A stretch of 64,000 bases of DNA from Nemertoderma westbladi. Taxonomy: Eukaryota > Animalia > Xenacoelomorpha. A model generated the notes under the pieces. That model saw only the letters and a program-made list of their open reading frames with translations. It did no database searches and had not been told where the DNA came from. How positions within the stretch are numbered: the stretch's first letter is position 1; every line of letters starts with the position of its first letter. Where the stretch lies: positions 1-64,000 of the forward strand of contig JAUCBJ010004405.1 in the NCBI GenBank assembly GCA_032718475.1, given 5' to 3'. This document shows positions 2,466-23,398 of the stretch, in pieces. The translations under genes were made by a program, and so were the position numbers.

Positions 2466-2867
2466 TTAACGCTTAGCGGATCGAGCCCTGCCGCGTCCTC
2501 GAAAACTGCGTATCGGTGATTTAGCTCGTGATATGGGACTTGTGGGGCGAGCCACTGGTTTACTTTGGACGTTGGGAGATGGTACGACCATTTCCTCACA
2601 TATTCGTCTCTTAGTTATCCCAAGTCCTCGTCCAATTCCTCGTGACCGATCGGTTGTATCTACCGCTGGTAAAACGTCTGGGAACGTGCGAGAAGCGGAC
2701 GACGCAGACCCAAGAGAAGCTTGCGCCCCCTTTTGATCAGCTGGTATATGTCCCGATCCTCCTTGCGGTTCTCTGGGAAGCGAAACCGTATCCCGAGTAA
2801 TTCGAATAGTCGGTTCACTACCCTTTCTTTCTTCAATATTTATAGTTTTCTTTAGTTGTTGGCTCAC
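2466..2867 (-). CDS. Accessory ORF of element 1, C-terminal segment (basic, R/S/P-rich tail)
   Basis: Open frame. The 2868-3020 gap reads as protein (KMFNRITYGEFDRFR...RIRQNRIIRVQKVSQQ) if frameshifts are allowed. Confidence 0.5.
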   Translation of the reverse strand: MSQQLKKTINIEERKGSEPTIRITRDTVSLPREPQGGSGHIPADQKGAQASLGSASSASRTFPDVLPAVDTTDRSRGIGRGLGITKRRICEEMVVPSPNVQSKPVARPTSPISRAKSPIRSFRGRGRARSAKR

Positions 2868-3020
2868 TTTCTGAACCCTTATAATCCTGTTCTGTCGAAT
2901 ACGCTCGCTCGTATGCGTTTATGGTAGAAGGCGGCTCGGTACGCCCATGCGACGGTTAACCAAGCTCCCTTATTTCGCTTTTCCGTTCGGAAACGATCAA
3001 ATTCACCATATGTGATACGA

Positions 3021-3602
3021 TTAAACATTTTGGGCAAAGTTTATTCTTTCGAAAATTTTTGGTGTCATCTCCTTAGCTGAAGTATAATCGTGTGACGTCC
3101 AATGGTGAGGTAGGCTCGCGAGTCTTCCGCCCCATTCTTCCATCTCTCCTTCCTCGAAAGCCTTATAGGCTCTGTATAGGCTAAGAGCTTCTTTCTTTTC
3201 GCGGGTTGACTGAGTCACCTCTTCCAGCGTAAGTTCAAATGCATCGGGTTCAACAATCTTAGGTGGACAAACGACAATTTCTCCCGCCTTTGGTCCACAC
3301 ATAGCAAATGAATGATATGGATTCGATAAAGGATACCCTCCTTCCTGGTAGCGTAGTTGTTGATGGTTCGAACACCTCGCCAATATCGGTTCGGGATTTT
3401 CCTTATTCAAACGCATCGGAATCGTATTTCGTTGTTCGCGCATACAAGCACCACATTGATAATAAAGTTTATAAACTGAAAATGCTTCCTTTGTTTCTCT
3501 ATCGTCCCCTCGAGTTCGTCTGTAAAGATGCATTCCATCGAATTCATCGCGTACCGCAGGCATAGGTTCATGCGCCTTCAGGTATTGCATGGTATGATAC
3601 AA
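3021..3602 (-). CDS. Accessory ORF of element 1, central segment with putative Zn-binding C-x2-C-x23-C-x2-H domain
   Basis: MQYLKAHEPMPAV...YYQCGAC...RCSNHQQLRY aligns with the 58618-59748 ORF of element 3. Confidence 0.75.
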   Translation of the reverse strand: MYHTMQYLKAHEPMPAVRDEFDGMHLYRRTRGDDRETKEAFSVYKLYYQCGACMREQRNTIPMRLNKENPEPILARCSNHQQLRYQEGGYPLSNPYHSFAMCGPKAGEIVVCPPKIVEPDAFELTLEEVTQSTREKKEALSLYRAYKAFEEGEMEEWGGRLASLPHHWTSHDYTSAKEMTPKIFERINFAQNV

Positions 3603-3898
3603 ACGACTAATTTCGGTATCGGGTCTTCGCTAATATCTCCCGTATCACATAAGGCGTCGTACGGGTAAAGTTCATTGAAGGTTTTGCGTAAACTTTCGAT
3701 TCTTTCATTTAACGCATTTTGCCTTCTCTTTAATACGTTCGAGCCATATTTAGTCTTTGCGAGTTTCGCTGTACTTTCTGATAATTCCTTTATACCAAAT
3801 ATGGTGTAGTCTTTAGCTCCAAATCGTTCGAATGGCGCTGCTGCTTCCTCTTGGATATCATATCCCCATCTCGGCTCTCCATGTATCCCCTTCGCCAT
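3578..3898 (-). CDS. Accessory ORF of element 1, N-terminal segment (MAKGIHGEPRW...)
   Basis: ATG at 3898 in ataATGG context, just after a canonical splice acceptor. Overlaps the next segment (frameshift near 3605). Confidence 0.6.
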   Translation of the reverse strand: MAKGIHGEPRWGYDIQEEAAAPFERFGAKDYTIFGIKELSESTAKLAKTKYGSNVLKRRQNALNERIESLRKTFNELYPYDALCDTGDISEDPIPKLVVCIIPCNT

Positions 3899-4561: not shown

Positions 4562-5143
4562 CTATTTACTAACATTTGTTGGAGACTTGTAATCTCCAGA
4601 CTTGTGTCGCGTCTCTTCAAGAAGTACGAGACGTTGAGTCGGTCTGTCTACTGTACGACCGTCAATTGTCCGTACAGTCACAGTTCTTGTCACTCCATCC
4701 ATAGATGGATGTGTGTCTAAAATTACACCTGTTATCCAGAAGCGTCTTTTTAGATTCACTTCTGCCAACAGCACGTGATCTCCCGGCTTTAAAGCGCGAG
4801 TATTGTTGTACCAAGTTGTTCTGGCAGAAATAGAGGGCAAATAATGGTTTTGCCATATTTCCCAGAATTTGTTAGCCAGTAGTTGCGTGATTTTCCACGC
4901 TTTTCTACCGTAACTATCGCCTTCTATTGGAATAGAAATAGGCGTTAATGTAGTCGGTGCCTGCATCAGCAGGTGTGCCGGTGTCAAAGCAAACTGGGAT
5001 TGTTTGTCATCGGGTACTAATACTATTGGTCTAGTATTTAGTATTGCCTCGATTTCAACAAACAGTGTTGTCAGTTGGTCGTTTGTCAAAATGTGGTTTA
5101 CTGGAATTACTTTTGCCATGGCTGTTTTTATAGACCTAATCAA
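4562..5143 (-). CDS. pol: Element 1 pol: integrase C-terminal part (frameshifted fragment)
   Basis: IEAILNTRP, LTPAHLL, FWEIWQNHYL, DGVTRTV and RPTQRLVLL motifs typical of BEL integrase. Confidence 0.9.
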   Translation of the reverse strand: MIRSIKTAMAKVIPVNHILTNDQLTTLFVEIEAILNTRPIVLVPDDKQSQFALTPAHLLMQAPTTLTPISIPIEGDSYGRKAWKITQLLANKFWEIWQNHYLPSISARTTWYNNTRALKPGDHVLLAEVNLKRRFWITGVILDTHPSMDGVTRTVTVRTIDGRTVDRPTQRLVLLEETRHKSGDYKSPTNVSK

Positions 5144-7461
5144 TCTCTCCCAGACTCCGCCTCTCCATGGACTATCTGGAGGATTAAACTTCCAAACAAT
5201 CTTGTAAGGACGTAGTTCGTTTGAGATTGATCATGATCTAATTTCTTAAAGGCTCTAGCAATTTCATTTCGAGCACCAACAAAGTTTGTACCTTGGTCTG
5301 AGTACAAGCATTTTACTAGTCCACGTCTAGCGATAAATCGCCGCAATGCTAGTATAAAGGCGTTGGTGGAAAGATCCATCACACGTTCAATATGGACTGC
5401 CCTACTGGATATGCATGTGAAAATCAGTCCCCAGCGTTTCACTAATATACGTCCACGTTTCGTATGTATGGGACCAAAGCAGTCAATTCCAGTCTCTGTG
5501 AAAGGTGGTCTGAATGCCTGTAGTCGTGCTTGTGGAAGTTCACTCATTTCTTGGGTACTTATTCTAGAATGTACCTTTTTACAAATAATACACATACGCG
5601 TCACTGAACTTAGCGCTTTACTGGGTCTAATTAATACAAATCTTGTACGTAAGTAGGAAAGACAGTGGTGTCTTCCAGCGTGTTTCAGATGTAAATGTGC
5701 GTCCAGTATCATTGCACGTTGTAATTCGTGATGTTGCGGTATTATTATTGGGTACCTAAAATCAGTATTAAAGTCAATGTTTTGAAGCCGAGATTTATGA
5801 CAAATTAAGCCATTATAAATTATCGGACTCCAACTCAATATTGGTGACGACTTGATTGGTTGACCTTGACTTATAGATGTGAATTCGCGTGCGAAATATC
5901 GCAATTGGTAATGGCGAATTAATTTAATTTCACATCTGTCAATCTCAGTCAATGTGAGTCGACGTGTAAAGTCGCGTTTGCCTTTAACGTACTGTACAAA
6001 ACGTACGATCCACGCTAATTTTCGGCACGTGTTTGTCCAAGAATCTGTCAAATTTACAATACGGTCGACGTAAGTATTTATGACGTCATCAGGTAAGTCA
6101 ATGGAGAATTTGGAAGGTTTTGTTTTACTAGATGGGCCCACGAGTCCGCCGGTAAGTATTCCCTTGTTGACTGTTGATCCGTCCGGGTCTACAAGTAATT
6201 TGTCCTTCTTCGTCTTCTTACCTTGATTGTCATTACTTTGTGTGTTGATTCGTAATGGTGGTTTTAACTCTATGGGATCGCTGGGTTTCGGTAAATTTGT
6301 TTTTCTGCCGATATTAATCCCAGGTCTCATCGTAGGTTGTAAGGTTGGTATGTCTCTTGAGCGTAAAGTAACACCTGTATTTACATTAGCGTAGGTACTA
6401 CCCACATCTGTAATACATGAGGTTTCACTGTACTTATGGTTACTCAAGGGTGTCAAATCTGGTAGTTTGTCAATAGAAGGCCGCTCCAATAGGGAAACTG
6501 CGGCTTTACTATGTGTCGCTACGTTACTAATGTCTTGTAGAACATCTTGTGAAATGTCTGGTAAAAGGTTTCGCGGAACATCCGGCGAAACGTCTAGTGA
6601 AATGTCTGGCAAAATGTCTGGTTGACCGTCTAGTAACGTGTCTGGTTGACCGTCTGGCGATACGTCTGGTAACATGTCTGGTTGACTGTCTGGCGATACG
6701 TCTGGTTGAGAAAGGCTCGCAAGTCTTCCTGCCCTAACTTTGTGAGTTATATTCTTCCATTTCGCCTTTGGTTTCTTCTTAAGTTTCGCCGTTGTCTTTT
6801 TCTTTGCTTTACCTTTCTTTGGTTTTTTAATTTCGGCGTCCTTAGGATTAGTATTAGACTTGTTATCGTATAGTGGCGGCCAATGTTGTGTTGCTCTTTG
6901 TAAGAATTGTGGTCCGTGTTGCCAAAATTCCTTGTTTTCCGGTTTACAGAATTCCTCAGGCATCATTCCTCGCGACGCAATATCAGCTGGATTTTGTGGT
7001 CCGGGACAATGTCGCCAATCTTCCTTTATTGAACGGTCTAGAATTTCTGCACGACGGTTAGCTACGAATGTCTTGAATTCAAGTGTGTCGTTGTTTATAT
7101 AAAATAAAACTAACGTCGCGTCAGTCCAATAAAATATCTGTAAACTTGACTGTAGTTCAGTCTGTATGAGGTTTACAATTGTCGTTGACAGAGTTGCGGC
7201 TTGTAGCTGTGCGCGTGGTGTCGTCATGTACTTAGTAGGCATTGTTTTAGCCTTAGAAGTAATGAGCGAAACATCAAACTCATCTGAGTCTACTTGTCTG
7301 CGCAAATACGCTGTCACACCAAAGCCGTTGTCACTGGCATCGGAAAAACAATGTAATTCTAAGTTGTCAGGAAATGTCGTCTGTAATGGAAAGTACACCC
7401 AGGGTATGGAATAATCCTCTAGCGAAGATAATTGCGCCTCCCAAGTCTTCCATAAGTCCAC
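5140..7461 (-). CDS. pol: Element 1 pol: RNase H, long low-complexity linker, integrase HHCC and catalytic core (fragment)
   Basis: LHCFSDAS, YWTDA, NPADIASRG, H-x4-H...C-x2-C, IDCFGP, SDQGTNF. Confidence 0.92.
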   Translation of the reverse strand: MDLWKTWEAQLSSLEDYSIPWVYFPLQTTFPDNLELHCFSDASDNGFGVTAYLRRQVDSDEFDVSLITSKAKTMPTKYMTTPRAQLQAATLSTTIVNLIQTELQSSLQIFYWTDATLVLFYINNDTLEFKTFVANRRAEILDRSIKEDWRHCPGPQNPADIASRGMMPEEFCKPENKEFWQHGPQFLQRATQHWPPLYDNKSNTNPKDAEIKKPKKGKAKKKTTAKLKKKPKAKWKNITHKVRAGRLASLSQPDVSPDSQPDMLPDVSPDGQPDTLLDGQPDILPDISLDVSPDVPRNLLPDISQDVLQDISNVATHSKAAVSLLERPSIDKLPDLTPLSNHKYSETSCITDVGSTYANVNTGVTLRSRDIPTLQPTMRPGINIGRKTNLPKPSDPIELKPPLRINTQSNDNQGKKTKKDKLLVDPDGSTVNKGILTGGLVGPSSKTKPSKFSIDLPDDVINTYVDRIVNLTDSWTNTCRKLAWIVRFVQYVKGKRDFTRRLTLTEIDRCEIKLIRHYQLRYFAREFTSISQGQPIKSSPILSWSPIIYNGLICHKSRLQNIDFNTDFRYPIIIPQHHELQRAMILDAHLHLKHAGRHHCLSYLRTRFVLIRPSKALSSVTRMCIICKKVHSRISTQEMSELPQARLQAFRPPFTETGIDCFGPIHTKRGRILVKRWGLIFTCISSRAVHIERVMDLSTNAFILALRRFIARRGLVKCLYSDQGTNFVGARNEIARAFKKLDHDQSQTNYVLTRLFGSLILQIVHGEAESGRD

Positions 7462-8216
7462 TTGTTCAGATGAGATCGGTTCGTCAGTCCATCTTTCCAG
7501 ATACTGCGCATATATATTCTTGCTTGCAGTATTATTGGGCTGATGAAACCTAATGGATCGAACAGTCTACTTAGTTTCGACAAGCAAGACCTCTTTGTCA
7601 GAGAATCCCCTTCAGCGTCCAGTTTTACTTTCACTCGAAAGTTGTCTGTGTTCGGGTCCCAAAATAGTCCCAACACCTTGGTCGTCGGCAGTGGTTCGAA
7701 CTCTAAGTCAATGTTACCACCCCCACGTTCAGTCGTTTCGAATGAATTTACTAATTCGGCACTGTTTGAGGCAAACTTGGTGAGGTTAAAACCTCCGCCT
7801 GCTAAACAGTCCCGTAATTGATGTGCTACTGTTATAGCACGTTCTACTGTGTCACAACTTTGTAATCCATCGTCCACATAAAAGTCTCGTTCTATGATTT
7901 GGATTACCTCTGGGTCATATTTATGTTTCTGATCCCTAGCGGTTTGCTTAAGGGCGTACATAGTACAGTTTGGGCTGTCCCTGGCACCGAAAACGCGAAC
8001 TTGCATTTGGTAAGTCGCCGGTGGTTGACTTAAGTCTCCATCCGGGTACCAGAGGAACCTCAAACTGTCTCTGTCTCGCTCTAACGCTCGCACTTGGTGA
8101 AACATCGCTTCTACGTCACAAGTAAATGCTACTTGGCGCTGACGGAAGCGCATAATCACCCCCATGAGATAATTATTCATGTTTGGTCCATCCATCAACT
8201 CACTATTGAGAGACAT
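7419..8216 (-). CDS. pol: Element 1 pol: reverse transcriptase (fragment)
   Basis: CDVEAMFHQV, LRFLW, FGARDSP, FYVDD, FDPLGF. Confidence 0.93.
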   Translation of the reverse strand: MSLNSELMDGPNMNNYLMGVIMRFRQRQVAFTCDVEAMFHQVRALERDRDSLRFLWYPDGDLSQPPATYQMQVRVFGARDSPNCTMYALKQTARDQKHKYDPEVIQIIERDFYVDDGLQSCDTVERAITVAHQLRDCLAGGGFNLTKFASNSAELVNSFETTERGGGNIDLEFEPLPTTKVLGLFWDPNTDNFRVKVKLDAEGDSLTKRSCLSKLSRLFDPLGFISPIILQARIYMRSIWKDGLTNRSHLNKWTYGRLGRRNYLR

Positions 8217-8276
8217 TCCCTCAAACAGAGCCGCGCAGTCATTGACTACACGTACTTTGTCTGGTTTGTCGGGGTG

Positions 8277-10232
8277 TCACACGTAGTGATGTGGCAAGTA
8301 GTATATCTGGTCAGTCACAATCTCTGGGTTTGTCATTCTGATAGCATATCCTTTCGTCAAATACGTCTCCATCTGAGTATTGTACTGCAGATGGGCTTTC
8401 TCGTCCTTTAATAAACGTTGTTGTATTGAGTGTAGACGTCTTAAAGCTAGCGGATAATTATTTGTAAGTTTAGGACGTTGGTTACGCCATAGCATCCCTA
8501 CCTCATAAAGTCCGTCTTTCGTCCGGCGGATAGTATCTTCCATGATCTTTAAAGATTGTTTCTCTTGTTCTGACATACATGGTTCGTAACTACCGGGTTC
8601 GGCTGTATCTTGTTCTAACCACCTGATAGTTTTCTCTGTTAATTCCTTGTCCAGTGCAGCTTGTTCCACTTGATGATTTCTTAACGCGTCTTCATCGACG
8701 GGCGTTGTTGAGGTTATTGGTTGAGGTAGACTCACAAGCCTTCCGGCGTTATCATCTATCGTTGATGGAACCTCTGCCTGACTCCGCTCCTTCTCAATCT
8801 TTACACTAAACTGGTGGATTGGCTGCTCTTTGTGACTTATTGTACTCGCTACACACGTCGTACTTGTAACGTTGTTGTGTTTTGTCGAACGTAGTGTAGT
8901 ATGGTCCTTGTTGTGTGAAAAGGAATGAGTCGAAGTTGTAGTTAATAAACTACATGTACTTTGTACATCGTCTTCCTCATCACTTATATCTAGTGTGCGC
9001 ACAGGCGCTCGAGTATACCAACCCATCGGAGTTCGACAGGCGTATGCATTTCCTGCTACGACTACCGATGGTCTGGTTTCCCACACTTGATGTAAATTGA
9101 ATTGATCTGTCCCGATCAGCATTGCTACTGATCTATAGTTGACAGGACATTCAGGTACACCAAGGTGTCTGAAATACTTACGGTCCTCTAAGGATTGTTC
9201 CGGCACTGGACCCAGTAGGTTACTAAAGTCCTTGGTGGCCGCAAAAGTCAAATCCCTAAAGGGTAACAAAGACCTCTCCTTTTCGCTGTGTTGCGATTTC
9301 GGAAGAAGAGTGTCTAAGTTTAACTTAACTCGTGTCACTGGTATTGCACGTTGTCCATGCATACTACTTACGGTGTAACTGACGTTCTTACCTTGTCGGA
9401 GATCCGTCACGACATCAGCTACCTTCTCATCCACATAGCTGTGAGATGAGGCTGAATCCAGAATAGCGTAGATCCTTTTGCTCCCTTTGGTGCCAGTAAT
9501 CTTAATAGGAATTACGCTAAAACCTTTTAGTTGGTCAGTCGTCAGAAGCGCGATCGATGGTTGTTCGTCTCCAACTGAGTATACGTCGTCGTCCTCGGTT
9601 TCTTCATCAGAAGACCCGGATTGCTCTGGGAAACAATCCCGAATATGCGTCACAAAAGTTGGTGTTGTTCTCGATTCTCGATTCTTATATGCCGTGTTAC
9701 ATTTCGCTGCTGCTTCCGGGTGTTCCCTTGTGAAGCGTTTGGTCGGCGTATGGCTGTCCGTATGGAGCAAACCGTCGTGGTTGCGTCCACAGGATGGACA
9801 AGTGTCCATGTTTGGACAATCTTTGCGGACGTGTCCGTGTTGAGTACACCGCCAACAAGAGTCCAATGGCCGTATCTGCAGCCGTCGTTCTTCCGAGTTT
9901 AACTCGCGAAACAACCGACAACCTCTTAACTTGTGAGTGGTGTGCCGCTTGCCTAGCTGCTCGCAGTATTGGCAACCGCTAAAGTCTGCACTCAGTTGTT
10001 GTCTGCTCTGTTTGATCCCAATAGGTGTGGATACTCTACTACCGTCCGAAAATTGTCGGGTTTCTGTCGATGTGGCGTAAGTGGCCGTCTTGGTGGATGT
10101 TGTCTGGGGTTTTTGTCGGTTTGAGGATGGTAAGGTGATTCCTTCTGCTACGATGTGTTGGTCAGTGTAGTTGGATCGAGTCTCCACTACCGCTTCCCTG
10201 GATATTAATAGGTATACATCCTCTAGTTTCAA
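8277..10232 (-). CDS. gag-pol: Element 1 gag C-terminus (three Zn knuckles), aspartic protease and start of RT (fragment)
   Basis: CQYC..H..C, CWRC.QHGH...C, CPSC.RNH..LLH; protease AILDSAS; YYLPHH. Confidence 0.9.
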   Translation of the reverse strand: MKLEDVYLLISREAVVETRSNYTDQHIVAEGITLPSSNRQKPQTTSTKTATYATSTETRQFSDGSRVSTPIGIKQSRQQLSADFSGCQYCEQLGKRHTTHKLRGCRLFRELNSEERRLQIRPLDSCWRCTQHGHVRKDCPNMDTCPSCGRNHDGLLHTDSHTPTKRFTREHPEAAAKCNTAYKNRESRTTPTFVTHIRDCFPEQSGSSDEETEDDDVYSVGDEQPSIALLTTDQLKGFSVIPIKITGTKGSKRIYAILDSASSHSYVDEKVADVVTDLRQGKNVSYTVSSMHGQRAIPVTRVKLNLDTLLPKSQHSEKERSLLPFRDLTFAATKDFSNLLGPVPEQSLEDRKYFRHLGVPECPVNYRSVAMLIGTDQFNLHQVWETRPSVVVAGNAYACRTPMGWYTRAPVRTLDISDEEDDVQSTCSLLTTTSTHSFSHNKDHTTLRSTKHNNVTSTTCVASTISHKEQPIHQFSVKIEKERSQAEVPSTIDDNAGRLVSLPQPITSTTPVDEDALRNHQVEQAALDKELTEKTIRWLEQDTAEPGSYEPCMSEQEKQSLKIMEDTIRRTKDGLYEVGMLWRNQRPKLTNNYPLALRRLHSIQQRLLKDEKAHLQYNTQMETYLTKGYAIRMTNPEIVTDQIYYLPHHYV

Positions 10233-10399
10233 GAATCCACCCCGTTCTTCGCGCTGGTATTCGATCTTCCTCCACTCCCGACGAAGTCGATGGTGGAGTC
10301 TTCCTATGATCTTTAATAGGACTGTAGGGGTGTTCCCGTAATCGAGTTATCCAATAGATCTCAATGTAGTGATAGCGTTTTTTATTTCGTCAGCTAGCT

Positions 10400-11092
10400 T
10401 TAGTAAGTCGACGGGTTTAGTAATAGCCCCCCCTTACAGAGTTCCTCTATCACTGACTTGGCCATGCTAACTGTACCTCCGTAGATTGAAGTTAAGCGAT
10501 CGTATGCTAACTCGAAGGCATCTGGTACACCAACGAAAGTCTCCGCTAAGCGTTTGGGTTCTCCCGTCAAGGTTTGAAGCAAATAATTGAACTTTTCCCT
10601 TGATGTAAAAGCGCACGCCGCAATTTGAGATTCGATGTAGTCTACGAACGTGTGCCAATGTTTGGAGTTGCCGGAAAACTTAGGTGGTTGTTGCACCGGT
10701 AGTCCTTGTCTGGCTGCGAATTTGGCTATCTCCTCGGCTACATTCAAAGTTTCGCGTCCTTGGTTGGCAATCGAGTTGATGTTCTCCCGTCTTGGCGCTT
10801 TTCTTTGATACGAGGTGGTTCTCGAAGGTATCACTCTTTGCGGATCCTTCGGGTTTCTATTGTGTTCGAATTCGGTGTTTCTCGAACTATCGGTTTGAAC
10901 TTCCTCCAAGCGTTCCTCGATCTGAGCCAACTTGTTAACAACTGGTCGCAGAATGTCGGCGAACTGTTGTGTACTGATCGCGTCCGTTGGTTGTAACGCT
11001 TTCTGTGTTGGTGTATTTCGTGGAGGATTGTCTATAAAGGAATTGTCTGAACGCTCGCGTTTGTATTCATCGGCCGCTCCTGTTCTAAACAC
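10400..11092 (-). CDS. gag: Element 1 gag capsid-like region (DUF1759-type)
   Basis: PKFSGNSKHWHTF...EKFNYL...LTGEPK...YG. In frame with 11222-13402 across a single TGA. Confidence 0.85.
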   Translation of the reverse strand: MFRTGAADEYKRERSDNSFIDNPPRNTPTQKALQPTDAISTQQFADILRPVVNKLAQIEERLEEVQTDSSRNTEFEHNRNPKDPQRVIPSRTTSYQRKAPRRENINSIANQGRETLNVAEEIAKFAARQGLPVQQPPKFSGNSKHWHTFVDYIESQIAACAFTSREKFNYLLQTLTGEPKRLAETFVGVPDAFELAYDRLTSIYGGTVSMAKSVIEELCKGGLLLNPSTY

Positions 11093-11209
11093 CTCGCGTT
11101 CCGGGTAATCCGATTCGCTCGAAGTGCTGCTATCACCTGGATACGGTGGCCGATGTGCTCGCGTCCGTTGGGTTGTCCGAATTCTAACATTCCGCTTCGG
11201 AACATCGTC

Positions 11210-11550
11210 TACTGGTTTCCGTCATTCGGTAGGCTCGCAGGTCTTCCTCGAAGTCGTAGATTGCGATGTAAACTGGTTAAGCGGTCGTGTATCCACTGGT
11301 CTCCGTTGTTCGGTAGGCTCGCAGGTCTTCCTCGAAGTCGTAGATTGCGATGTAAACTGGTTAAGCGGTCGCGTATCCACTGGTCTCCGTTGCTCGGTAG
11401 GCTCGCAGGTCTTCCTCGAAGTCGTAGATTGTGATGTAAACTGGTTAAACCGGTTAAGCGGTCGCGTATCCACTGGTCTCCGTTGCTTGGTAGGCTCACA
11501 AGTCTTCCTCGAAGTCGTAGATTGCGATGTAAACTGAATTCGTGGTCGCG
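11210..11550. repeat. 84-bp (28-aa) tandem repeat x4 inside gag
   Basis: Unit NQFTSQSTTSRKTCEPTEQRRPVDTRPL repeated; one copy has a 9-nt insertion. Confidence 0.95.
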
Positions 11551-13402
11551 TAATGGCGTTTGAGTCCAAAGTCCTCGTAGGTCTAAACACAGTTGGGTTT
11601 ACGTTGTGCGTAACCGGTTTTGGTGTCGATGGTTGACTCACCTGTTTAGTCGTTATTAATGTAGGTCCGACTAATAAACTACTACGATCTGTAATCGGTG
11701 GGTTACTTACCTTGACTCTCGGAATAGGCGATGACGTTGCTCTTGGCAGTACAAACTTGTCTGGAATAACATACCTGTGTTCCGTTGCATCGTGTATAGG
11801 AGATATACTACTACTACCAGCAATCGAAACAGGTCCTTTATTCGTAATTGGTGCGAACATCGGAGTTACTTGCGGAAATCGTTGACATAAGTCTTTAACT
11901 AATTCCCGTTCTCGCTCAGGTGCTCCTACGCTTCCTTCCTTCATTCGTTCCTGAATTTGACGATGTCTTACCTCTAACCGGTCTAGATCGTGTCCGTCTT
12001 GAGATCTCCTCGATCGATCGCGGGCTTGTAGATCCAGATCTTCCTTAGCGTTGGCTAATTCTCTCGCCTTCTTCTCGAGTTCGAAATGAAGTTTAACTTC
12101 CTTCTCGCGTTGTTCCATCTGTTGTTGTTGCGCCTCGAACTCCGCTAGTCGTATAGCTGATTGAGCCTTTATTTGCCGTTTTCTTAATTCGGCTCGGGCT
12201 TCCGAAACTCGCCTTTGTTCGTCCAATTCGGCTGTTGCCGCTTGTTGCTCCAACTCAGCCGTTCGTCGCGCTAACTCAGCTGCCGCTTGTCGTTCCAACT
12301 CAGCTGCTGTCGCTTGTCGTTCCAACTCAGCTGCTGTCGCTTGTCGTTCCAACTCAGCTGTTGCTGCTCGTTGCGCTAACTCAGCTGCTGCCGCTCGCTG
12401 TGCTATTTCTAACTCCAACCTTTCCATCTCAGCCGCTTCCAACTCGGCTTGTTCTTGTAGATGAGAGATTCTCGCAACATTTGCAACGCGTAGCTTCTCT
12501 TCATCTACCACCGCTTGTACCGTTAACAGTTGAGTTTGTTCCTCAATTTCTCGTTGTTGTCTATAGTACTGTTGTTGCTGTCGAGAAATTTCTGACGTCA
12601 CTATACTTACCTCGCCAATTTCGCTGCGAATACTCACTAATGACTGGTCCAGTATTCCCGGTGCCGATTCGATTTGTACGGGTGAAGTTTTCCTTGTATA
12701 TTCCGGCACGGTTTCCAAATCGCCGACGTCTTCGCCGCACATACGTAAGTGATCCGTCAGATGTTTCAATTGTCCATCCAGTCGGTACAGTTCTTGTTCT
12801 TCCTCGGGCTGTAACAACTCGTCGGAAACCGACTCACCTAATAACTGGTCCGCTTGTTCCTGTTGTATCTGTCTAACGGTCATCTTAAACTGAATCAGTT
12901 TCTCCCTAGCAATCATTAATTTCTCGAGGATTCTAAACTGTGTGTCCATATCCTGTCTCTGTCTAGCTAGATCTTGTAGACCAATTAGATTATCTACAGA
13001 CTTATGTACTTTACTCTGTACTCTAACCTGTAGGGTGTAGAACTCGAACCGAGACATCGGAGCGGTCAACTCGTCTAATATGCGTTGGCCTTCTCCAATA
13101 CTCCTGGTAATATGCGCCATGTATCCTCCGACGCTTCTAACCACGCTCTCCTGGCTTCCTACTGAACTTACCATGTCCGTTTCTCTATGTCTAGGTTGCG
13201 GGACCGTTAGGAAATCCTCAGTCCTGCCGTCGCCTTGTACTACGGCATCCGGTACTCCCGTTGGATGTACTGGTGACATGCACGGTGTAGGTTCGGTAGG
13301 CTCACGAGTCTTCCCCTGTGGTTCTTCCGCTTCTGACTTATCCGCATCACATGAGTCATAGTCGGTTTGTGTATTCTTCGTATAGTCTTGTTTGTCACTC
13401 AT
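11222..13402 (-). CDS. gag: Element 1 gag N-terminal region (coiled coil, AELERQ repeats)
   Basis: 726-aa ORF upstream of and in frame with the capsid region; E/Q/R/A-rich heptads. Confidence 0.85.
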   Translation of the reverse strand: MSDKQDYTKNTQTDYDSCDADKSEAEEPQGKTREPTEPTPCMSPVHPTGVPDAVVQGDGRTEDFLTVPQPRHRETDMVSSVGSQESVVRSVGGYMAHITRSIGEGQRILDELTAPMSRFEFYTLQVRVQSKVHKSVDNLIGLQDLARQRQDMDTQFRILEKLMIAREKLIQFKMTVRQIQQEQADQLLGESVSDELLQPEEEQELYRLDGQLKHLTDHLRMCGEDVGDLETVPEYTRKTSPVQIESAPGILDQSLVSIRSEIGEVSIVTSEISRQQQQYYRQQREIEEQTQLLTVQAVVDEEKLRVANVARISHLQEQAELEAAEMERLELEIAQRAAAAELAQRAATAELERQATAAELERQATAAELERQAAAELARRTAELEQQAATAELDEQRRVSEARAELRKRQIKAQSAIRLAEFEAQQQQMEQREKEVKLHFELEKKARELANAKEDLDLQARDRSRRSQDGHDLDRLEVRHRQIQERMKEGSVGAPERERELVKDLCQRFPQVTPMFAPITNKGPVSIAGSSSISPIHDATEHRYVIPDKFVLPRATSSPIPRVKVSNPPITDRSSLLVGPTLITTKQVSQPSTPKPVTHNVNPTVFRPTRTLDSNAITRPRIQFTSQSTTSRKTCEPTKQRRPVDTRPLNRFNQFTSQSTTSRKTCEPTEQRRPVDTRPLNQFTSQSTTSRKTCEPTEQRRPVDTRPLNQFTSQSTTSRKTCEPTE

Positions 13403-15450
13403 TTCGGTAGTTGTAAGTCAAGTAAAGTGAGTGTCAAAGTATCAAACTTACCGTATTTTATATCTAAACGGTATTAATTACAGTCATATAAAATTAGCCT
13501 ACCGGTCGATTTTATAGCAGATGGATAAAATTAGCCTAGCGGCCAATTTTACAGCAAATAAATGTCACGGAATAAGTATATAATAAAATTAGCCTACCGG
13601 CCAATTTTACAACAAATAAATCAGATAACGATATACGTTATCAAAGGGTAGATTAAATACAATAATACGGACTAATTCAGCAATAAACAAAGAAATCGTA
13701 CGGAATGCATAAATACTTGAGACAGTGGAACCCACAATAATTTTAACTAATACGGTAATGCCTAACTTATTTATGCAACTTTTCGAACTCACCCCCTCCA
13801 ATGATTCTCCAGAAAAACAGATTCCCAGATACAAACCGGACGTGAACCTTTCCGTTTCCAGCGTTGCGGACGAAGTGCGATTTTCCCAACCAAAGTTGTT
13901 GAGTTATCTATCTCCCAAACTTGCTAAACACGGTCTTGCTCTCATTACAGTCTAGAAATGAGCTCTGAATCCTGAAAAACAAAAGAGTTAGGTTTTACTT
14001 TTTACGAAAATTTTGTACCGGTACAATATGGTATTTAAACCCCTTTAAACACCGGTATTCAATTCCAAATATTTTACACGAGGTTCAAATCAAAATTTTA
14101 TTTCAAAAAATTAGCACTTAGCTGATCAAATATAAACTTTTACCTCAAAATACAAAATTTTCAAATAACTTTAGTCCTACCGAACCGTAGTTCAGTAAAA
14201 CATATTCCTACTATACGAAGAGACAGTAACAAAATACCCTGCAATATCTTACTGTAAAGTTTGTGAATCAAATCATAAATCCGACCTTCTCACCAAATCA
14301 GTAAACTCTAAGTAAGCGAATATATATATTGCAGTATTTTGTCTCTTATAACCGGTGAGGCAGAAAACAGTCTACGAACGGACAAACTTCGATAAAACAA
14401 AATCGCGCGCAGCGAATCCTAAAATCAGGCTGACTCACTGATGGACTAAGGGGCTCGTATACTTTGCCGCGGTGTGATTTATATGGTTGAGCGAGAGAGA
14501 CGCTAGCTAGGTGCAGAAAAGTCTAACTAGCGGGCAAAGCGCAGTATGGACAAAAATTATTTTATATATTTTGAGGTGTAAATAATTTCTAACGCGCGTG
14601 TGTCTTGATTCTAAACAGTCAAAGTCAGTTTTGCTCCTTCACATATATAATTACTGGGTCCGGTGTGCATTTTACAAATATTCTAATTTTGTAACTTGTA
14701 GGTCCAATACTCACGAATGATAAGGCTCCTTCCCCTTTTGTGTATTTCCAGGACTCAAATTCAGGCATAAGGTTAATACTACGCCCAGAATTCGGCAATT
14801 TAATTTACCAGGTCCCTAATACTAAGAAGAAATGTGTTAGTTTACTACAGTAGGCGTACAGTTACTAATAGCTAGCCTGGTGTTCTTATCTAGAATTTTG
14901 GTTGCCTAGATGGGCACGGCAACTTCCTAACAGAATGTTGGCGGGGACACGATAGATGTTAGTATCCCTAATAGCCTCAATTTATTTTGCGCCTAGTAAT
15001 AAACTGCCCTACCGCCTGAACGGTACAATCCTAATTCAGGTAAAACACAGTAACCCTTCTGGCCTACAAGTTCTAATGCAATGGACACCGTTGTACTACA
15101 AATAGTCACAGACGCACCTGTACTTAGCAAGAGTTAGGCGTACAGTTTGCTGCACCCTACCAATGTGTATGCCTTGTACCGGTGTGCCTGCATCCTATCT
15201 GTGTACTAGTATCTCTGTCTGATCTCCTCCTCTCCCTGTAGGAATATGAAGGTCTACTGTGGGTTTTTCTTTGAATTAAGACAGTACGGTCCCTAGATGT
15301 AAATTTTAGCGCACAGTGTGTCACTACCTCTACCTTCGATCTTTGGTCTTACACTTAAGTAGCAAGGCATTGAACGCTGTCTAACCTTTCAGGCGATGGG
15401 CGAATAACTAAGAATGATATTGCGGGTTGTCTCCTCCTACATTCCTCAGA

Positions 15451-16782: not shown

Positions 16783-19700
16783 CTAAGCTGGGGAGTCCCT
16801 AGATGTTTGTTGGATTAGGGAGGTGGTCGTGGGAAGAGTATCTTGTCTTCCATAGTTTCCGGAGAGTTCTCTGTCTCTTTCCAGTAAACATAAGCGACCA
16901 ACTGGGCGATTGAGCTGCTGTGTCTCGAAGACAATTCCTGGTTTCTTGAAGTTACGTCGCATGATGACGAGTTCTACCGATCGCACCAAACCGTCATCCG
17001 AGATGTGAGTCTCAATGATACGACCTGTCTGCCACCGCTTACGTGGAAGATCTGCATCCACAATAAGGACCATGTCTCCAGCGCTGACGTTTTCTTGCTG
17101 CGCAAACCACTTAGTTCGAAGTTGTAGCGTGGGCAGATAATGTTTTTCGAAATGGTCAGCGAAACGACGGGATAACAACTGCATGAGTTGCCAAGTTTGC
17201 CGGCAGTATTCGTCTCCGTCTGTGATTTCCGATTGTGGGAGCATGGCTACAGGTTTCTTCAGTAGGAAGTGCGCGGGTGTTAGCGCTTCCAGGGAATCGG
17301 GACTCGATGAGACTGGCATAAGCAGTCTCTCGTTGAGATAGGCGGCGATTTCCTCCATTAACGTCCGCAAAAGTTCGTCGGTGAGATACGCGCGGCACGG
17401 CACTATAAAGAGAAATGCGGTCTTCACACTTCTAATTAATCTCTCCCAACTTCCTCCCCACCAAGGGGCGTCGGCGGCGTTGAAGGTCCAGCTAGACGCT
17501 GTTACCTTTAGCTGATCGTCCACCTGTCTTTGGTTCCAATCTTTGACGTAATCTTTGATTTCATTGTTGGCACCAATGAAGTTTGTTCCCTTATCAGATC
17601 TCATCGTGTTGCTAGTTCCAAAGCGAGCGATCTGTTGTCGTAAGCTTAATAGGAAGCTGTTGGTAGATAAATCGTTCACCATATCGAGATGGATAGCTCT
17701 ACAAGTCATACAAACAAAGATGACACACCATCTCTTGACTATAGTCCTAGCACGATATACTTCAATAGGGCCAAATAAATCTACACCGGTATTAGTAAAG
17801 GGTGGTTCATAGAAGCTTACTCGTTCCCTAGGTAATTCTGCCTCTCGCTGTGTTAAAGGCCTACTGAATGCTTTCCTACAGGGTATGCAGTTCCTAAGAA
17901 CTTGGTTCAGAGCTCTACGCGGTTTATAAAAATAATAGCGAGTTCGAATTTCGCTAAGAACTCGTTCTCTACCAGCATGATAAAGTTTGCTGTGAACATC
18001 TACAATCATCTTGACTTGTATTTCAAGATTTCTAATGAGTATGGGAAACTTAGTGTCAAAGGATAATGGAGCATTCGTTAATCTTCCTCCAACACGTATC
18101 AACCCATCTATCATTGTGCTAGCGAAACGATCTCTTAAGCGCATCTGTGGATTTCTCAACAACAGGAAATACTTATCGGAATCATCATAGCATTGCAGGA
18201 GTCTCAGCATCTGCTTGTTGGTTTCTTCATGCTCCTGATAACCGATCTTCTCCTTCAGAAACCTGTCGGATATCTTATATTTGGGAAGATCTTTAACAAC
18301 ATGGACCTGCACCGATGTCAGGGGAGCGGTATCACCTTTGGTCTTCGTCCCGGAGTAGTGATGATGAAAACATCTTTTTAAATATGTAACGGCTTTACAG
18401 AGCCGATTCCAGGAACTGTAGTGATGTATCGCTCTCTGCAGGAGAGGTAAGAGTCCTTGCGAGACGTCTGGTATTCCAGATTTCCAATCCTTCTCACGGA
18501 TTTCCACAACAGACTTATTTATGGCTGTGGGTTTCTGATCCAAAGCGTCGTCTCCGGAAGTATGTAGTACAGACAGATCTACCATAGGTTTGAATAACTT
18601 CGATTTACTCGCCCGAGTTTTAGGTTTGACTTTCTCCGCTCCCTTGGCCTGTCTGATCTCTGCCGTAGTAAGATGAGGAGGCCATTCTTCTTCTTCTTTG
18701 TAGAGGAAGTCGGGTCCACCTAACCAGTCTGGAGTATCTACCAGTTCTTGTGGAGTAGCTCCCCTGGAGGCGATGTCTGCTGGATTGATCGTTCCGGGGC
18801 AATGTCTCCATTGATCCATTGTCGTGCGACTGAGTATAATAGCTACTCTGTTGGTAACGAAGACGCTGAACTGACAGACTTCATTGGTTATATACTCCAA
18901 CACGAGTAAAGCATCGGTCCAATAGACAGTTTTCTCCAGTGGATAGTCAATCTGTTCTGTTACATTCCGGCCGATGGCTGTAGCGTATAGAGCCGCTTTT
19001 AACTCCGCTCGAGGAACTTTCAACTTGTTGTTTATCAATGCCTTAGAGGTAACCAAGGCGACCTTGATTCCATCTGGAGTTTCCACTCTTAGGTAGGCTA
19101 CTATACCTATTCCCATATCGCTGGCGTCTTCAAACACATGGAGTTGATAGGAATACGTAGGGAGAACATGACCAAAATATGAACGGGAAATTATAAAGTT
19201 CTCGATGGCTGGTAGAGAATCTTCCCATTTCATCCACTTCTTTAATAATTCTCCCTTAAGTGGATTGTCCCATGAGTGGTTTTCAAGCCACATTTGTTGT
19301 ACTAAACTCCGAGCAATCAATATAACTGGGCTAATAAATCCCAATGGATCGAAATAAGTGCTCAGGATACTTAAACAAATCCGTTTAGTCCGAACTGGAT
19401 TATCTCGCTGTTTTAGCTGGAAAAACAGGATATCTCTCTCTGTGTCCCATTTCAAACCAAGTGTCTTGGTTTCTGGAAGATCATCTTTGATTAGATCTAG
19501 GTCTTTCGCTCCTCGATCTTCTACCGGGATCGACTCCAGAAACTCACGGGAGTTGCTGGTGAATTTAGTTAATCGAAATCCACCTCTTTTTAAGCACTCT
19601 ACCGTTCCTTTAGCTACATCAGTGGCTTCTTCGACTGATGGAAGGGACTTTAGATTGTCGTCCATGTATATATCCCGTTTGATGTTGTCAATCACCTCTT

Positions 19701-21654
19701 TAGAGAAGGCTTCTCGGTTGTCATCCGCAGTGGTGCGCACCACTGAACAGGCGTTTGAAGGGCTTGAGATTATCCCAAAAGCCTGGATGGTCATCCAGTA
19801 CTCCACCGGTTTCTGGTTGAGGTCTCCTTCAGGCCACCACAGAAATCGTAGGCTATCTCGATCCCTATCCAGCGCCTTGACTTGTAAGAACATGCCTTCT
19901 ATATCTGAGGCGAAAGCGATTGAATATTGTCTTAATCTTAAGAGTATTCCCAACAAGGATTGGAGTAAGTTGGGTCCGGGTAACAATTCGGAATTAAGGG
20001 ATTGGCCCATATAAAGGGCGGAGCCGTCAAACACCACTCGTACCTCATGGGGTTTACCGGGTTTGGGAACGTAATAGTGAGTTAAATAATACTTTCTCTC
20101 AGTTATAGGTGTTTCTTCCGGTACTCGCTCCGCATATCCCTTGCTAATAAATTTCTTCAACTGCGTTTGATACATTTCTTTAGCTGAAGAATTTGCCGTA
20201 AGGCGTCGATGTAGTTGAGCAATTCTTTTCTCTGCCAAGGGTCTGTTGTTTATGAACTTTGGTTCTCGCTTTCGGAAAGGTAGGCCGATTTCATATCTAC
20301 CTTGATCTTTAAGAAAACGTGTAGTTGTCTCTTGGATCTGCTTGGCTCTTTCTTCTTCTACCGATAGGGCCTTATCGTAGGAATTGGGCTCTACAGCCTC
20401 TTGAGTAAAGAATCGTACGGCGTGTTCATCCCGAGTCTTGGCATTATAACGTTCAATGACGTCATTAAGTTCGTCGTTATAGTCGTCTCGTTCTGATGGA
20501 CGAAGGAGCTGACATAAGTTCACTTGGTTTTGCCAAGTCTCGTTTTCCTTAAGGAGATCAATGGTATTCTCCTCGTCGAAGAGTTGGTGGACATCGTCGT
20601 TATCTGAGGAGTATGGTGTTCCCTCAGTTGGATCGTCTAACTCACTGCTCTCAACTTCCCATTCTCTTACTTGATATACCTGATCTTTTGGTAATCTTTC
20701 CATGAGAGTTCTACGGGAAGGGCCAGTAAAGTACCAACCCACTCTAGTTCTTCCCGCATAAGCTTGTAGTGGTTGCGGTTGAGCAGGCCGTTTCTCCAAT
20801 GTCTCGAGCGCTTCATGCGCATTTTGACCGATGAGTATTTGCACTCCAGGGTAATCGGTGGCGAATCTAGGTATTTCAAGCTGCTGGGTGAAATCGTCCT
20901 CATCCCAGTTATAAGGTTCCACTTGGCTGGTAGCGAAGTTCTTTATCGCCACCATCTTTACTGACCTTATACTATGTTCTCCTAGTTCATCCTGGGGGGT
21001 GGACAACGCACCTACATAATAATCCGCTATTACTGTAGATTTCCAAACCTGCATAATTCCTGACATGTTTAGCTTAGTTCGGAACTTGGGTTGTCCATCA
21101 AAGATGTCTTCGGCTAGTTCTTTGTCGATGAATGTTCCTGTACTACCGGAGTCAAGGAGGGCGTTCACTATATAACTCCTTTTAGGTCCGTGGACCCTTA
21201 ACTGTACTACAGGAAATTCTCGGATTCCTACATTGGAAGTTGGCGCTTTCCAAGATGGTTGTCGATCAGAAGTAGTTAGGGTGAGGTCGCTGGCTGTGTC
21301 TTTTTCATACGTAAGTGCTCGATACACTGCGGTATTTATCATGTAACAGGATTCATCTTCGTCGGAGAATTCATCCGTATAGAATCCTTCCATCTCAGAA
21401 CTTTGGTCAGTGTCGTTCACATCACTGAATTGGACATGTAATTCGGAATCACTTACCTGACTCTGGCTGTTTCGCTCGAATTCAGTGTGCAACAAGATAT
21501 GATGTTTCGCACCGCACTTTGCACACCTTGTGTCGGAGTAACAGGTTCGCCGTTGGTGTCCTTGTCTGAGGCAATTATAACACAACCGCTTATCCCACAT
21601 GACTTCCCGTCTATCCGTTAATGATTTCTTTAGGAATTCATCACACACATTCAA
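16783..21654 (-). CDS. pol: Element 2 uninterrupted Zn knuckles-PR-RT-RNaseH-IN polyprotein (1623 aa)
   Basis: CYNC..GH...C, CAKC..KHH.LLH, LLDSGS, IYMDD, FEDAS, NPADIASRG, VDLFGP, SDKGTNF, WERLIRSVK. Confidence 0.96.
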   Translation of the reverse strand: MNVCDEFLKKSLTDRREVMWDKRLCYNCLRQGHQRRTCYSDTRCAKCGAKHHILLHTEFERNSQSQVSDSELHVQFSDVNDTDQSSEMEGFYTDEFSDEDESCYMINTAVYRALTYEKDTASDLTLTTSDRQPSWKAPTSNVGIREFPVVQLRVHGPKRSYIVNALLDSGSTGTFIDKELAEDIFDGQPKFRTKLNMSGIMQVWKSTVIADYYVGALSTPQDELGEHSIRSVKMVAIKNFATSQVEPYNWDEDDFTQQLEIPRFATDYPGVQILIGQNAHEALETLEKRPAQPQPLQAYAGRTRVGWYFTGPSRRTLMERLPKDQVYQVREWEVESSELDDPTEGTPYSSDNDDVHQLFDEENTIDLLKENETWQNQVNLCQLLRPSERDDYNDELNDVIERYNAKTRDEHAVRFFTQEAVEPNSYDKALSVEEERAKQIQETTTRFLKDQGRYEIGLPFRKREPKFINNRPLAEKRIAQLHRRLTANSSAKEMYQTQLKKFISKGYAERVPEETPITERKYYLTHYYVPKPGKPHEVRVVFDGSALYMGQSLNSELLPGPNLLQSLLGILLRLRQYSIAFASDIEGMFLQVKALDRDRDSLRFLWWPEGDLNQKPVEYWMTIQAFGIISSPSNACSVVRTTADDNREAFSKEVIDNIKRDIYMDDNLKSLPSVEEATDVAKGTVECLKRGGFRLTKFTSNSREFLESIPVEDRGAKDLDLIKDDLPETKTLGLKWDTERDILFFQLKQRDNPVRTKRICLSILSTYFDPLGFISPVILIARSLVQQMWLENHSWDNPLKGELLKKWMKWEDSLPAIENFIISRSYFGHVLPTYSYQLHVFEDASDMGIGIVAYLRVETPDGIKVALVTSKALINNKLKVPRAELKAALYATAIGRNVTEQIDYPLEKTVYWTDALLVLEYITNEVCQFSVFVTNRVAIILSRTTMDQWRHCPGTINPADIASRGATPQELVDTPDWLGGPDFLYKEEEEWPPHLTTAEIRQAKGAEKVKPKTRASKSKLFKPMVDLSVLHTSGDDALDQKPTAINKSVVEIREKDWKSGIPDVSQGLLPLLQRAIHHYSSWNRLCKAVTYLKRCFHHHYSGTKTKGDTAPLTSVQVHVVKDLPKYKISDRFLKEKIGYQEHEETNKQMLRLLQCYDDSDKYFLLLRNPQMRLRDRFASTMIDGLIRVGGRLTNAPLSFDTKFPILIRNLEIQVKMIVDVHSKLYHAGRERVLSEIRTRYYFYKPRRALNQVLRNCIPCRKAFSRPLTQREAELPRERVSFYEPPFTNTGVDLFGPIEVYRARTIVKRWCVIFVCMTCRAIHLDMVNDLSTNSFLLSLRQQIARFGTSNTMRSDKGTNFIGANNEIKDYVKDWNQRQVDDQLKVTASSWTFNAADAPWWGGSWERLIRSVKTAFLFIVPCRAYLTDELLRTLMEEIAAYLNERLLMPVSSSPDSLEALTPAHFLLKKPVAMLPQSEITDGDEYCRQTWQLMQLLSRRFADHFEKHYLPTLQLRTKWFAQQENVSAGDMVLIVDADLPRKRWQTGRIIETHISDDGLVRSVELVIMRRNFKKPGIVFETQQLNRPVGRLCLLERDRELSGNYGRQDTLPTTTSLIQQTSRDSPA

Positions 21655-21898
21655 ACGGTGGGGCCCGTCACACAGCGCACATTTTTGGGGTTTTTCTTAC
21701 CTGTTCTCTCCTGTCATTGGTTCGAGACCTGAATTTACTTATGTCTTTGGGCGTTTTGTTGACATAATAAGATCTTTCAGTGTCTTTCCCGCTGTCCTCT
21801 CCTTGAGAAGCCTGGCTTTCGCCGTCGTCGGTATAACACACTGGTGTTACCTTTCTCCTAGAAACGGGTTTCTCACTTACCTTGTTTTCCGGTGTCTT

Positions 21899-22849
21899 CT
21901 ATCTGGACTGCTTTAGGAGCTGTAATTTCACTTCTCCATCTAAGAATGACATGAGATCAGCCATGGTAGGGTCTCGTCGTTGCTGTTCCATCATATATAA
22001 CACTTTCTTATCCCAGCGTGTACCTACTCCACCCTTCGGTAAAGTAGAGGCCACAGCTCCAATAACCATAGAACTCTGATATTCATGAGACTTACCTAGC
22101 CAATCTAATTGTCTACAGATCTCCTGAATCTCATCGGAAAACTCTATAATCCCGCTGCTAATGAATTTTCGGGACGCTACCAATTTTGCATACAAATACC
22201 TAGCTATGTTATTCCTATTACCATACCTGATGTTTAGGGTATCCCAAACTTGTCTTAATCCATCGGGATGTCCAATAAACTTTAACGCCATTAACTTGGG
22301 AGATCCTTCCAAGCACTCGATGAGGAATCTAAGTTTCTCTCCGTTTGATAGCACAGAGTTCTGTATGTTATCTTTGTAATATTCATTAAAAGGTAACCAT
22401 TTCATCTCATCTCCATTGAACTTGACGATCTCTCCCACCTTGACCGCTTGACGGGCTTCGGTTCTAGCCATTTGACGCGTAAAACTTTCTTGGGCCATCG
22501 TGTTATTTAATATCGAGTTATCGGTATATAAATTTCTCGGATTATTATCAAGTCTATATGGGATATCATTGTCAACGGGTTTATAATTACCCTTAATAGG
22601 GTTTACTATAGGAGTTTCCACTTCGCTAGCAGTATAGATGCGTGTAGGCTCCACAACTTGCGCATGAAATACTTCAGACCTAACAGGTTGACACATTGTT
22701 ACAGGGGGTGGTGGTATACCCTTTTGCACCAACGAAATTGCAAACCAAAGAAGAAGTTCAACAGGATTTGGTGGTAATAGATCATTGGCCCACTCCCACT
22801 TGCAAAGAAATTGACCAACCCCCTGTAACTTTACACACAGATAAATCAC
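21899..22849 (-). CDS. gag: Element 2 gag capsid-like region (frameshifted fragment)
   Basis: KFNGDEMKWLPF...EKLRFLIECLEG...LNIRYG; near-identical to 63189-63977. Confidence 0.85.
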   Translation of the reverse strand: MIYLCVKLQGVGQFLCKWEWANDLLPPNPVELLLWFAISLVQKGIPPPPVTMCQPVRSEVFHAQVVEPTRIYTASEVETPIVNPIKGNYKPVDNDIPYRLDNNPRNLYTDNSILNNTMAQESFTRQMARTEARQAVKVGEIVKFNGDEMKWLPFNEYYKDNIQNSVLSNGEKLRFLIECLEGSPKLMALKFIGHPDGLRQVWDTLNIRYGNRNNIARYLYAKLVASRKFISSGIIEFSDEIQEICRQLDWLGKSHEYQSSMVIGAVASTLPKGGVGTRWDKKVLYMMEQQRRDPTMADLMSFLDGEVKLQLLKQSR

Positions 22850-23398
22850 AATGGAACAGGGTTGTGGAGAAACCTTTCAATCAACCCAGGAATAGAATGA
22901 GACACCATACACAACTCCATACCAACCACCCTAAGTAACAAATTTGCTCCCTTGAGAGAAAATTGTGGTCCTCTTTATAATACTCATCTCCAACAGCACC
23001 CAACCAAGAAGCTTCCATCCAATTATCAACCCCAAATGCTGCCTTCTCACAACTCCATGAACAGAGTCCAGAAGCAACTAACCCAAAAGCACCAAGTGCA
23101 TTATGGACCGAATAACCAATCTGTTCCCCACACACCCTCTTATAAAGACAACAGAGCAAATGATCTGTATCCACCAACTAAAAACTATACAAAGCATAAT
23201 CTCACCAACCACCATACAAAGGAAGCTCCCAGAGACAGAAGTTACGTAGAAAGGTTCCAATTGAAGGTCAACTACTTCAATGACCATTCCTTCAAACAAA
23301 CTTCTAATACACACCCTTCGCCAGTACCCTTTAAGCTTAAATATCAAAGCAACAATGAAACCTGTAATTACACCAGAGCCCCCAACCATATTCATACC

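Follow-up and report, generated by a model that had tools for sequence, protein, structure and literature searches.

Two divergent families of BEL/Pao retrotransposons in the xenacoelomorph Nemertoderma westbladi carry, behind integrase, an accessory gene with a Cys/His domain that is real and selected, is not an envelope (env) domain and has no detected relative. The window analysed here is a stretch of 64,000 nt (contig JAUCBJ010004405.1 of assembly GCA_032718475.1, positions 1 to 64,000). It consists of repeat-rich eukaryotic DNA and contains three BEL/Pao copies, all on the minus strand, to which the coordinates of the element features below refer. Families A and B belong to BEL/Pao (Belpaoviridae) by their pol and gag domains, which follow the order Gag-PR-RT-RH-IN; Peptidase_A17, DUF5641, Integrase_H2C2 and DUF1759 score above the Pfam cut-off in both. 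The gag-pol of family A (4562–13417) is broken into six natural pieces with DUF1759, a zinc knuckle, RT, Peptidase_A17, integrase H2C2 and DUF5641. Family B is represented by one copy with gag-pol at 16783–24979 (pol frame of 1637 codons) and by another, internally deleted copy (64000–56960). The pol frames stop at 4562 (family A) and 61381 (family B). Identity between A and B is 49% in RT, 41% in the RNase H region, 39–46% in integrase, 30% in the capsid region and 26% in the nucleocapsid-protease region; judged by these values, the two families are distantly related.

Element A ends in a polypurine tract (PPT, 430–424) and a 3′ LTR head (423–284), which is identical at 139 of 140 positions to the 5′ LTR head at 16115–15976, the comparison covering the 140-bp heads within the window. 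The 5′ head marks the junction at which element A breaks into family B sequence, at 16116 in the first family B copy. The PPT and 3′ LTR of family B occupy 58153–56960; this LTR starts with TGT at 58146 and is 79% like 29242–28066. The tract GGAGCGG precedes the 3′ LTR in both families. A second GGAGCGG, followed by a similar GATTT, is found in both families between pol and ORF3 (4448–4442 and 60420–60414), and is possibly an internal PPT.

Some further features of these elements and their surroundings are recorded here. Both LTR heads of family A (from 16115 and 423) start with TAT instead of the usual TGT. The LTR of family B contains tandem duplications of 290 bp and 623 bp. A tRNA-like sequence (15975–15910; A-box and B-box by eye) starts exactly where the family A LTR-head match ends; ARAGORN called no tRNA at this place, and the sequence may be a SINE within the 5′ LTR of family A. 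A 63/65-bp satellite forms two arrays (29244–31107 and 39242–40110) that are ~95% alike and in opposite orientation; the first directly adjoins the 5′ LTR head of family B. MITE-like inverted-repeat elements lie at 56455–56694, 34594–34733 and 48478–49330, and by eye the first of these surrounds a sequence resembling a tRNA. Family A has an insert of ~320 aa (5140–7566) in the stretch from RNase H to integrase, versus 158 aa in family B.

The region of the third gene, ORF3, lies in sense orientation to gag-pol, between the pol stop and the PPT with the 3′ LTR head, in both families. The preliminary description had reported an extra ORF of 480–525 codons after integrase; its orientation and place hold, while a single ORF of this length is an estimate, as both window copies are broken. 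In family A, the N-terminal natural piece (3898–3578) starts at the first in-frame ATG (3898) of the open piece 4018–3578, and the middle natural piece (3629–3021, 202 aa) contains the domain shared with family B. A short piece in another frame (3040–2879, 53 aa) likely lies within the gene, judging from codon usage. The C-terminal natural piece (2918–2466, 150 aa) is S/P/R-rich and its frame is not certain; an alternative frame over it (2839–2432) has two open runs of ~60 codons. At the first ORF3 break, an indel separates the window copy from contigs of other family A copies in three sequencing runs, and the break therefore looks copy-specific; one such contig spans 3024–3839 with 60 differences and one gap. 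Family B has a natural open frame of 381 codons (59763–58618) with its ATG at 59748, and the chance of a stop-free run like this one is ~8e–10 per frame start. The tail of the family B gene (58640–58225) is broken, and its last natural piece (58440–58225) ends K/R-rich. Of the limits 58173–59748 originally given to this copy, the start stands, and the end is more likely the stop of the basic tail at 58225 than 58173. The ORF3 frames originally chosen are also those preferred by a codon-usage model for which gag-pol served as training set.

The shared domain covers ~95 aa (3333–3617 in family A and 58981–59238 in family B) and is defined by two sequences, one from each family. Its Cys codons are at 3453–3455, 3444–3446 and 3372–3374 and its His codon at 3363–3365 in family A; the corresponding codons in family B are at 59080–59082, 59071–59073, 59020–59022 and 59011–59013. 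A recount of the ungapped 23-aa blocks gave exactly the 10/23 identical residues reported before. YxxxYxCxxC and RCxxHxxxRYxxG were found in both families, and the spacing reads C59-x2-C62-x23-C86-x2-H89 in the family A piece 3629–3021 and C228-x2-C231-x16-C248-x2-H251 in the family B piece 59763–58618. Judged by its residue spacing, C-x2-C-x16/23-C-x2-H, the domain likely binds zinc, and presumably this spacing fits treble-clef zinc fingers (the second finger of LIM, GATA).

The two domains align with 27/95 identical residues in BLASTP (pairwise E-value 3e–7). Their local protein score is 96 versus 33.9 ± 4.9 for shuffled sequences, with 0/1000 shuffles as high, and the two domain pieces are mutual best non-self matches among 605 frames of the window (next scores 47 and 51). 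At the DNA level, the A versus B score is that of chance (18 versus 17.4 shuffled), and identity by codon position within a 38-codon ungapped block is 18/24/10 of 38. Since the protein aligns while the DNA behaves as shuffled and third positions are saturated, the homology of the domain has been kept by protein-level selection between the families, as the preliminary description had argued. The wider notion of a conserved gene applies to the ~95-aa domain only; the N- and C-terminal parts do not align. Outside the domain, five other pairs of ORF3 pieces from A and B score at chance, and so do 17 of 18 frame pairs of the ORF3 flanks. The remaining flank pair, reached by 5/200 shuffles, lies outside the ORFs and was taken as chance.

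Variation among other copies was followed in contigs of four public runs (X1, X3, X4 and X5) aligned to the ORF3 regions. Run X1 gave 5096 contigs on 5.1 kb of family A and 2416 on 421 bp of family B, many of them divergent, their depth not being equal to copy number. In run X5, which is labelled as another organism, two low-depth contigs over the family B domain differ at 31/188 and 37/265 bases. Differences were counted in the best-supported 40 of 452 aligned rows for family A and 40 of 120 for family B; the third-position counts combine decay private to single copies with differences between lineages, and do not amount to dN/dS. Among the best 40 of 452 rows of family A, third codon positions account for 6/7 differences in the N-terminal piece (P-value = 0.007), for 5/11 in the middle piece (P-value = 0.29) and for 1/4 in the C-terminal piece, where 3/4 are at first positions. 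The same four C-terminal differences fall at third positions in three cases when read in the alternative frame 2839–2432, so the C-terminal frame of family A ORF3 is not settled. For the best 40 of 120 rows of family B, 16/38 differences are at third positions (P-value = 0.16). The evidence for within-family selection is mixed: it is clear only for the N-terminal piece of family A, and conservation in family B is weak.

The four ligand codons of family A show no differences among the best 40 of 452 rows. The refuting outcome named in the preliminary description, C/C/C/H changing in further copies, is partly seen at the first Cys of family B, where the second base of the codon differs in 9% (X1), 15% (X3), 77% (X4) and 41% (X5) of depth; at the third Cys codon the difference is a third-position transition only. 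The conserved Gly codon of family B differs in 15% of X1 depth. In X3 and X4, the deep contigs at the first-Cys site have loose ends and three one-base gaps as well, pointing to a decayed subfamily. A pair of compensating indels near 59091 and 59137–59140 is present in some contigs, including one from X5; hence the frame just 5′ of the family B CxxC, including its first Tyr, varies among copies.

As far as the search tools reach, the domain matches no family or homologue, in line with its being called undescribed at the outset. Pfam at E ≤ 0.1 gave no match except HydF_tetramer (E-value 0.028, below its cut-off). A two-sequence profile had 0 matches at E ≤ 0.001 in 1,835,955,588 representatives. 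The word-indexed search with the family B frame returned 1341 candidates, none at E ≤ 0.01, and the same search with the two-sequence profile returned 575 candidates at longer lengths and 21 at near lengths, with no homologue among them. PDB sequences gave no homologue (one chance match, UpxZ, E-value 0.2), PHROGs and NCBIfam no relative (best E-values 0.02 and 0.094) and the ESM Atlas no usable match (best 0.78); the automatic name 'possible RING finger' in the latter (0.77) falls short of what the tool itself gives as chance level and was dismissed. Contig scans with ORF3 found no relative. One contig scan with integrase gave three loci of 30–31% identity, at which ORF3 matches stayed at E 0.22 or worse, and three others were empty. 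AlphaFold2 models of low confidence (pLDDT 31.6 and 37.4) provided no usable fold. Foldseek with the pLDDT 37 model returned nothing at E ≤ 0.001 from the PDB and viral libraries, and Vif rows at E 6.6 and 3.9 are meaningless on such a model. The sensitivity of these searches is limited by a profile of only two sequences, and eukaryotic transposon proteins are thinly covered. The domain might therefore have been captured from some known protein of the host or of a transposon (e.g. as a treble-clef finger), missed by the searches and now partly decaying, and the weak within-family signal in B fits such an origin. Nevertheless, the empty profile search, the sub-threshold Pfam result and the survival of a 381-codon open frame in family B make it quite improbable.

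ICTV describes the third gene of Belpaoviridae only as env-like (PMC8742986), and ORF3 sits in the env position. However, the highest 19-residue Kyte-Doolittle mean in its main pieces is 0.74–1.19, so hydropathy indicates no membrane anchor; there is no signal-like or transmembrane stretch by the same measure, Cys residues are few, the tails are basic and N-x-S/T sites are missing from the family A pieces. On these grounds an env glycoprotein was rejected, and the original designation as non-env is upheld. Fusogens of the sORF2/FAST type come from a short ORF that encodes a single TM helix, often with N-myristoylation (10.1101/2025.03.14.642691); this type was rejected as well, since ORF3 exceeds it in length and is not hydrophobic. 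A highly divergent env or fusogen is thus largely refuted and has very little probability left. Other animal LTR groups do have accessory genes that are not env, namely bdelloid ORF3s, CERV and sORF1/2 (PMC5408684, PMC10309623, 10.1101/2025.03.14.642691). For BEL/Pao, no non-env third gene with a Cys/His domain was found in literature that covers subscription journals little, and the accessible parts of PMC12451622, PMC12440569, PMC6338049, PMC6238403, PMC8556966, PMC2774666 and PMC3118150 mention no non-env third gene.

ORF3s of LTR elements typically come from spliced messages (PMC5408684). In family A, a predicted 3′ splice acceptor (3960–3927) with a CTAAC branch, a pyrimidine tract and AG at 3931–3930 ends 32 nt upstream of the ATG at 3898. 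Another predicted acceptor with the same branch word CTAAC lies in the 5′ leader (14000–13970, at 13972). A strict acceptor rule finds 6 minus-strand sites in 64 kb, including these two. An acceptor in the last 60 nt occurs in 0.2% of shuffled spacers, an optimistic figure as the rule was set after the site was seen. In family B the strict rule failed; an AG doublet lies 2 nt before the ATG. Both proteins appear to end in basic tails: K+R in the last 20 residues number 9 in family A and 11 in the last piece of family B (counted by hand, in a tail frame that we infer), and such counts are reached by 0.5% and 0.2% of gag-pol windows, respectively.

Family A also contains a dyad 20-bp word with the core GGAAGACTYGYGAGCC, in 12 copies between 761 and 13314 (ends at 780, 2444, 3128, 4273, 6729, 7451, 8744, 11247, 11331, 11415, 11508 and 13314). 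At ≤2 mismatches there are 12 matches versus 0.02 expected, all on the sense strand and all inside element A. An unbiased 16-mer scan ranks the word first among dispersed words (10 separate sites, next best 5); no dispersed 16-mer in family B or host-like DNA has more than 4 sites, and those of B are mostly LTR duplicates. Sixteen positions of the word are conserved. Self-complementarity extends over 12–16 of 20 positions in 11/12 copies, and random 20-mers reach 12 in 120/5000 cases. Three sites are non-coding (one behind the stop of pol, one behind that of ORF3 and one in the 3′ untranslated region); the other nine are in reading frames and use two different ones, hence the word is kept at the nucleotide level. 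Four copies belong to an 84-bp tandem repeat and two more adjoin tandem arrays; 12/24/36-bp tandem repeats in the family A insert at 5140–7566 adjoin one copy. Loose contig ends hint at a further site near 655–704 in other copies.

Candidates for a family B counterpart of the word were discarded. TACCGGTA and AGGCCT arrays also occur in host-like DNA, and ACGCTAC was post hoc, with partly homologous copies. The palindrome TACCGGTA forms arrays in the leader and LTR of family B (25370–25643 and 27290–27920, 126-bp tandem unit), with 7 sites in this copy and 2 in host-like DNA. The dyad word is thus specific to family A.

The main rival to the reading preferred below is a CERV/Rev-like role, in which ORF3 would bind unspliced RNA of the element and either export or stabilise it, the word being an RNA site or unrelated. 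With its two strong predicted acceptors, element A should have an intron-containing genomic RNA, and the earlier Rev-like proposal gains the acceptor predicted for ORF3. In C. elegans, the Cer1 element encodes CERV, a nuclear protein of 517 aa whose mRNA is spliced and which has a Cys finger as well as an Arg that is essential; ORF3 is alike in kind in its size, RC motif and basic tail (PMC10309623). All 12 words being in one orientation would also suit an RNA site. However, no shared RNA fold was found around the word among the 8/12 copies tested (z from –1.6 to +0.9), so an RNA hairpin was rejected, and the dyad symmetry suits double-stranded DNA. Moreover, the Cys spacing of CERV (C193, C195, C200, C269) differs, and CERV belongs to a Gypsy element and has exons in common with Gag (PMC10309623). 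We consider this role rather unlikely. A slightly less probable role is counter-defence by protein contact (e.g. with piRNA, chromatin or ubiquitin machinery), with structural zinc and a word that serves a host factor or integrase/Gag. It agrees with a small conserved core between fast-changing flanks and with the absence of the word from family B. The word core CTCGCGAG, which 2 sites match exactly, is similar to the site TCTCGCGAGA of BANP (PMC10206803), but the flanks of the core (A before, C after) do not fit TCTCG and 16 conserved positions are more than a BANP site needs; there is no direct evidence for any partner.

The reading that we tentatively prefer, and hold to be a serious possibility short of a probable one, is that ORF3 is a nuclear self-regulator that binds the DNA of its own element (VANC/Tas-like). 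The third gene would have been inherited from the common ancestor of families A and B, because the domain is 28% identical between them, much like Gag CA (30%) and NC-PR (26%). ORF3 would be translated from a spliced RNA via the acceptor at 3930, and the basic tail might carry the protein to the nucleus, where the zinc-type core and the tail would act on the element's own nucleic acid. An ORF3 dimer could recognise the dyad word on double-stranded DNA; once bound, the protein would maintain the activity of the entire element, much as VANC acts on VANDAL elements, with a target word that differs from family to family. In favour of this reading count the selected domain with its Gag-like divergence, the low hydropathy, the basic tails, the predicted acceptor and the word, which in its distribution over the element, its one orientation and its association with tandem repeats is like the targets of VANC (PMC5735166). 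The VANC-like idea of the preliminary description gains a candidate cis-target in family A, while family B, with the same domain, shows none.

Several observations speak against the self-regulator. No observation ties the protein directly to the word, and family B has the domain yet no comparable word. Nine of 12 word sites are coding, whereas VANC targets are mainly non-coding (PMC5735166). Third positions take 16/38 differences in family B (best 40 of 120 rows), where the first Cys and Gly codons vary, and 5/11 in the family A middle piece (P-value = 0.29, best 40 of 452 rows). The acceptor of family B fails the strict rule, and the models give no usable fold. The high CpG o/e of the ORF3 regions (1.35 in one, 1.25 in the other, versus 0.72 in host-like DNA) was counted in favour of the self-regulator, yet it could simply reflect young copies. 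The broadest form of the proposal is that an animal BEL/Pao lineage evolved sequence-specific self-activation, in which a new zinc-binding family encoded by a spliced third gene uses dyad docking sites within the element's genes to keep the family unsilenced, the site shifting as families diverge. We offer it as a speculation that is more likely wrong than right. If ORF3 does bind the word, the protein-plus-site pair would make the family-specific escape of animal transposons from silencing testable by gel-shift. The dyad word merits study whatever binds it, and a conserved non-env gene whose domain is absent from the searched collections represents a new accessory-protein family for little-studied animal retroelements.

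Compared with known Belpaoviridae (PMC8742986), the elements share the set and order of gag-pol domains, the PPT, the LTRs and a third gene behind integrase. They differ in that ORF3 is without glycoprotein features and that element A is ~16 kb long versus 4.2–10 kb according to ICTV. The third ORFs of bdelloid LTR elements are likewise non-envelope genes of animal LTR elements with typically spliced messages; they belong, however, to the Juno, Vesta, TelKA and Mag clades and encode GDSL esterases, DEDDy exonucleases, coiled-coil or TM proteins, and none of their families matches here (PMC5408684). CERV differs in being Gypsy rather than BEL, in Cys spacing and in sharing exons with Gag; by description it resembles ORF3 as a non-env accessory protein of ~500 aa (a length estimated here) of an animal LTR element, with a spliced mRNA (predicted here), a Cys cluster with adjacent Arg and a basic signal (PMC10309623). 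ORF3 has no Pfam match to the VANC domains DUF1985/DUF287. VANDAL is a plant Mutator-like DNA transposon, and here we deal with an animal LTR element whose word is a 20-bp dyad, mostly coding, absent from family B and a candidate for binding only (PMC5735166). Common to the Arabidopsis VANDAL system and family A are an extra transposon gene and a word private to the family that keeps one orientation and lies partly in tandem repeats (PMC5735166). If ORF3 binds the dyad word, family A would show that animal retrotransposons have a counterpart to VANC of plants.
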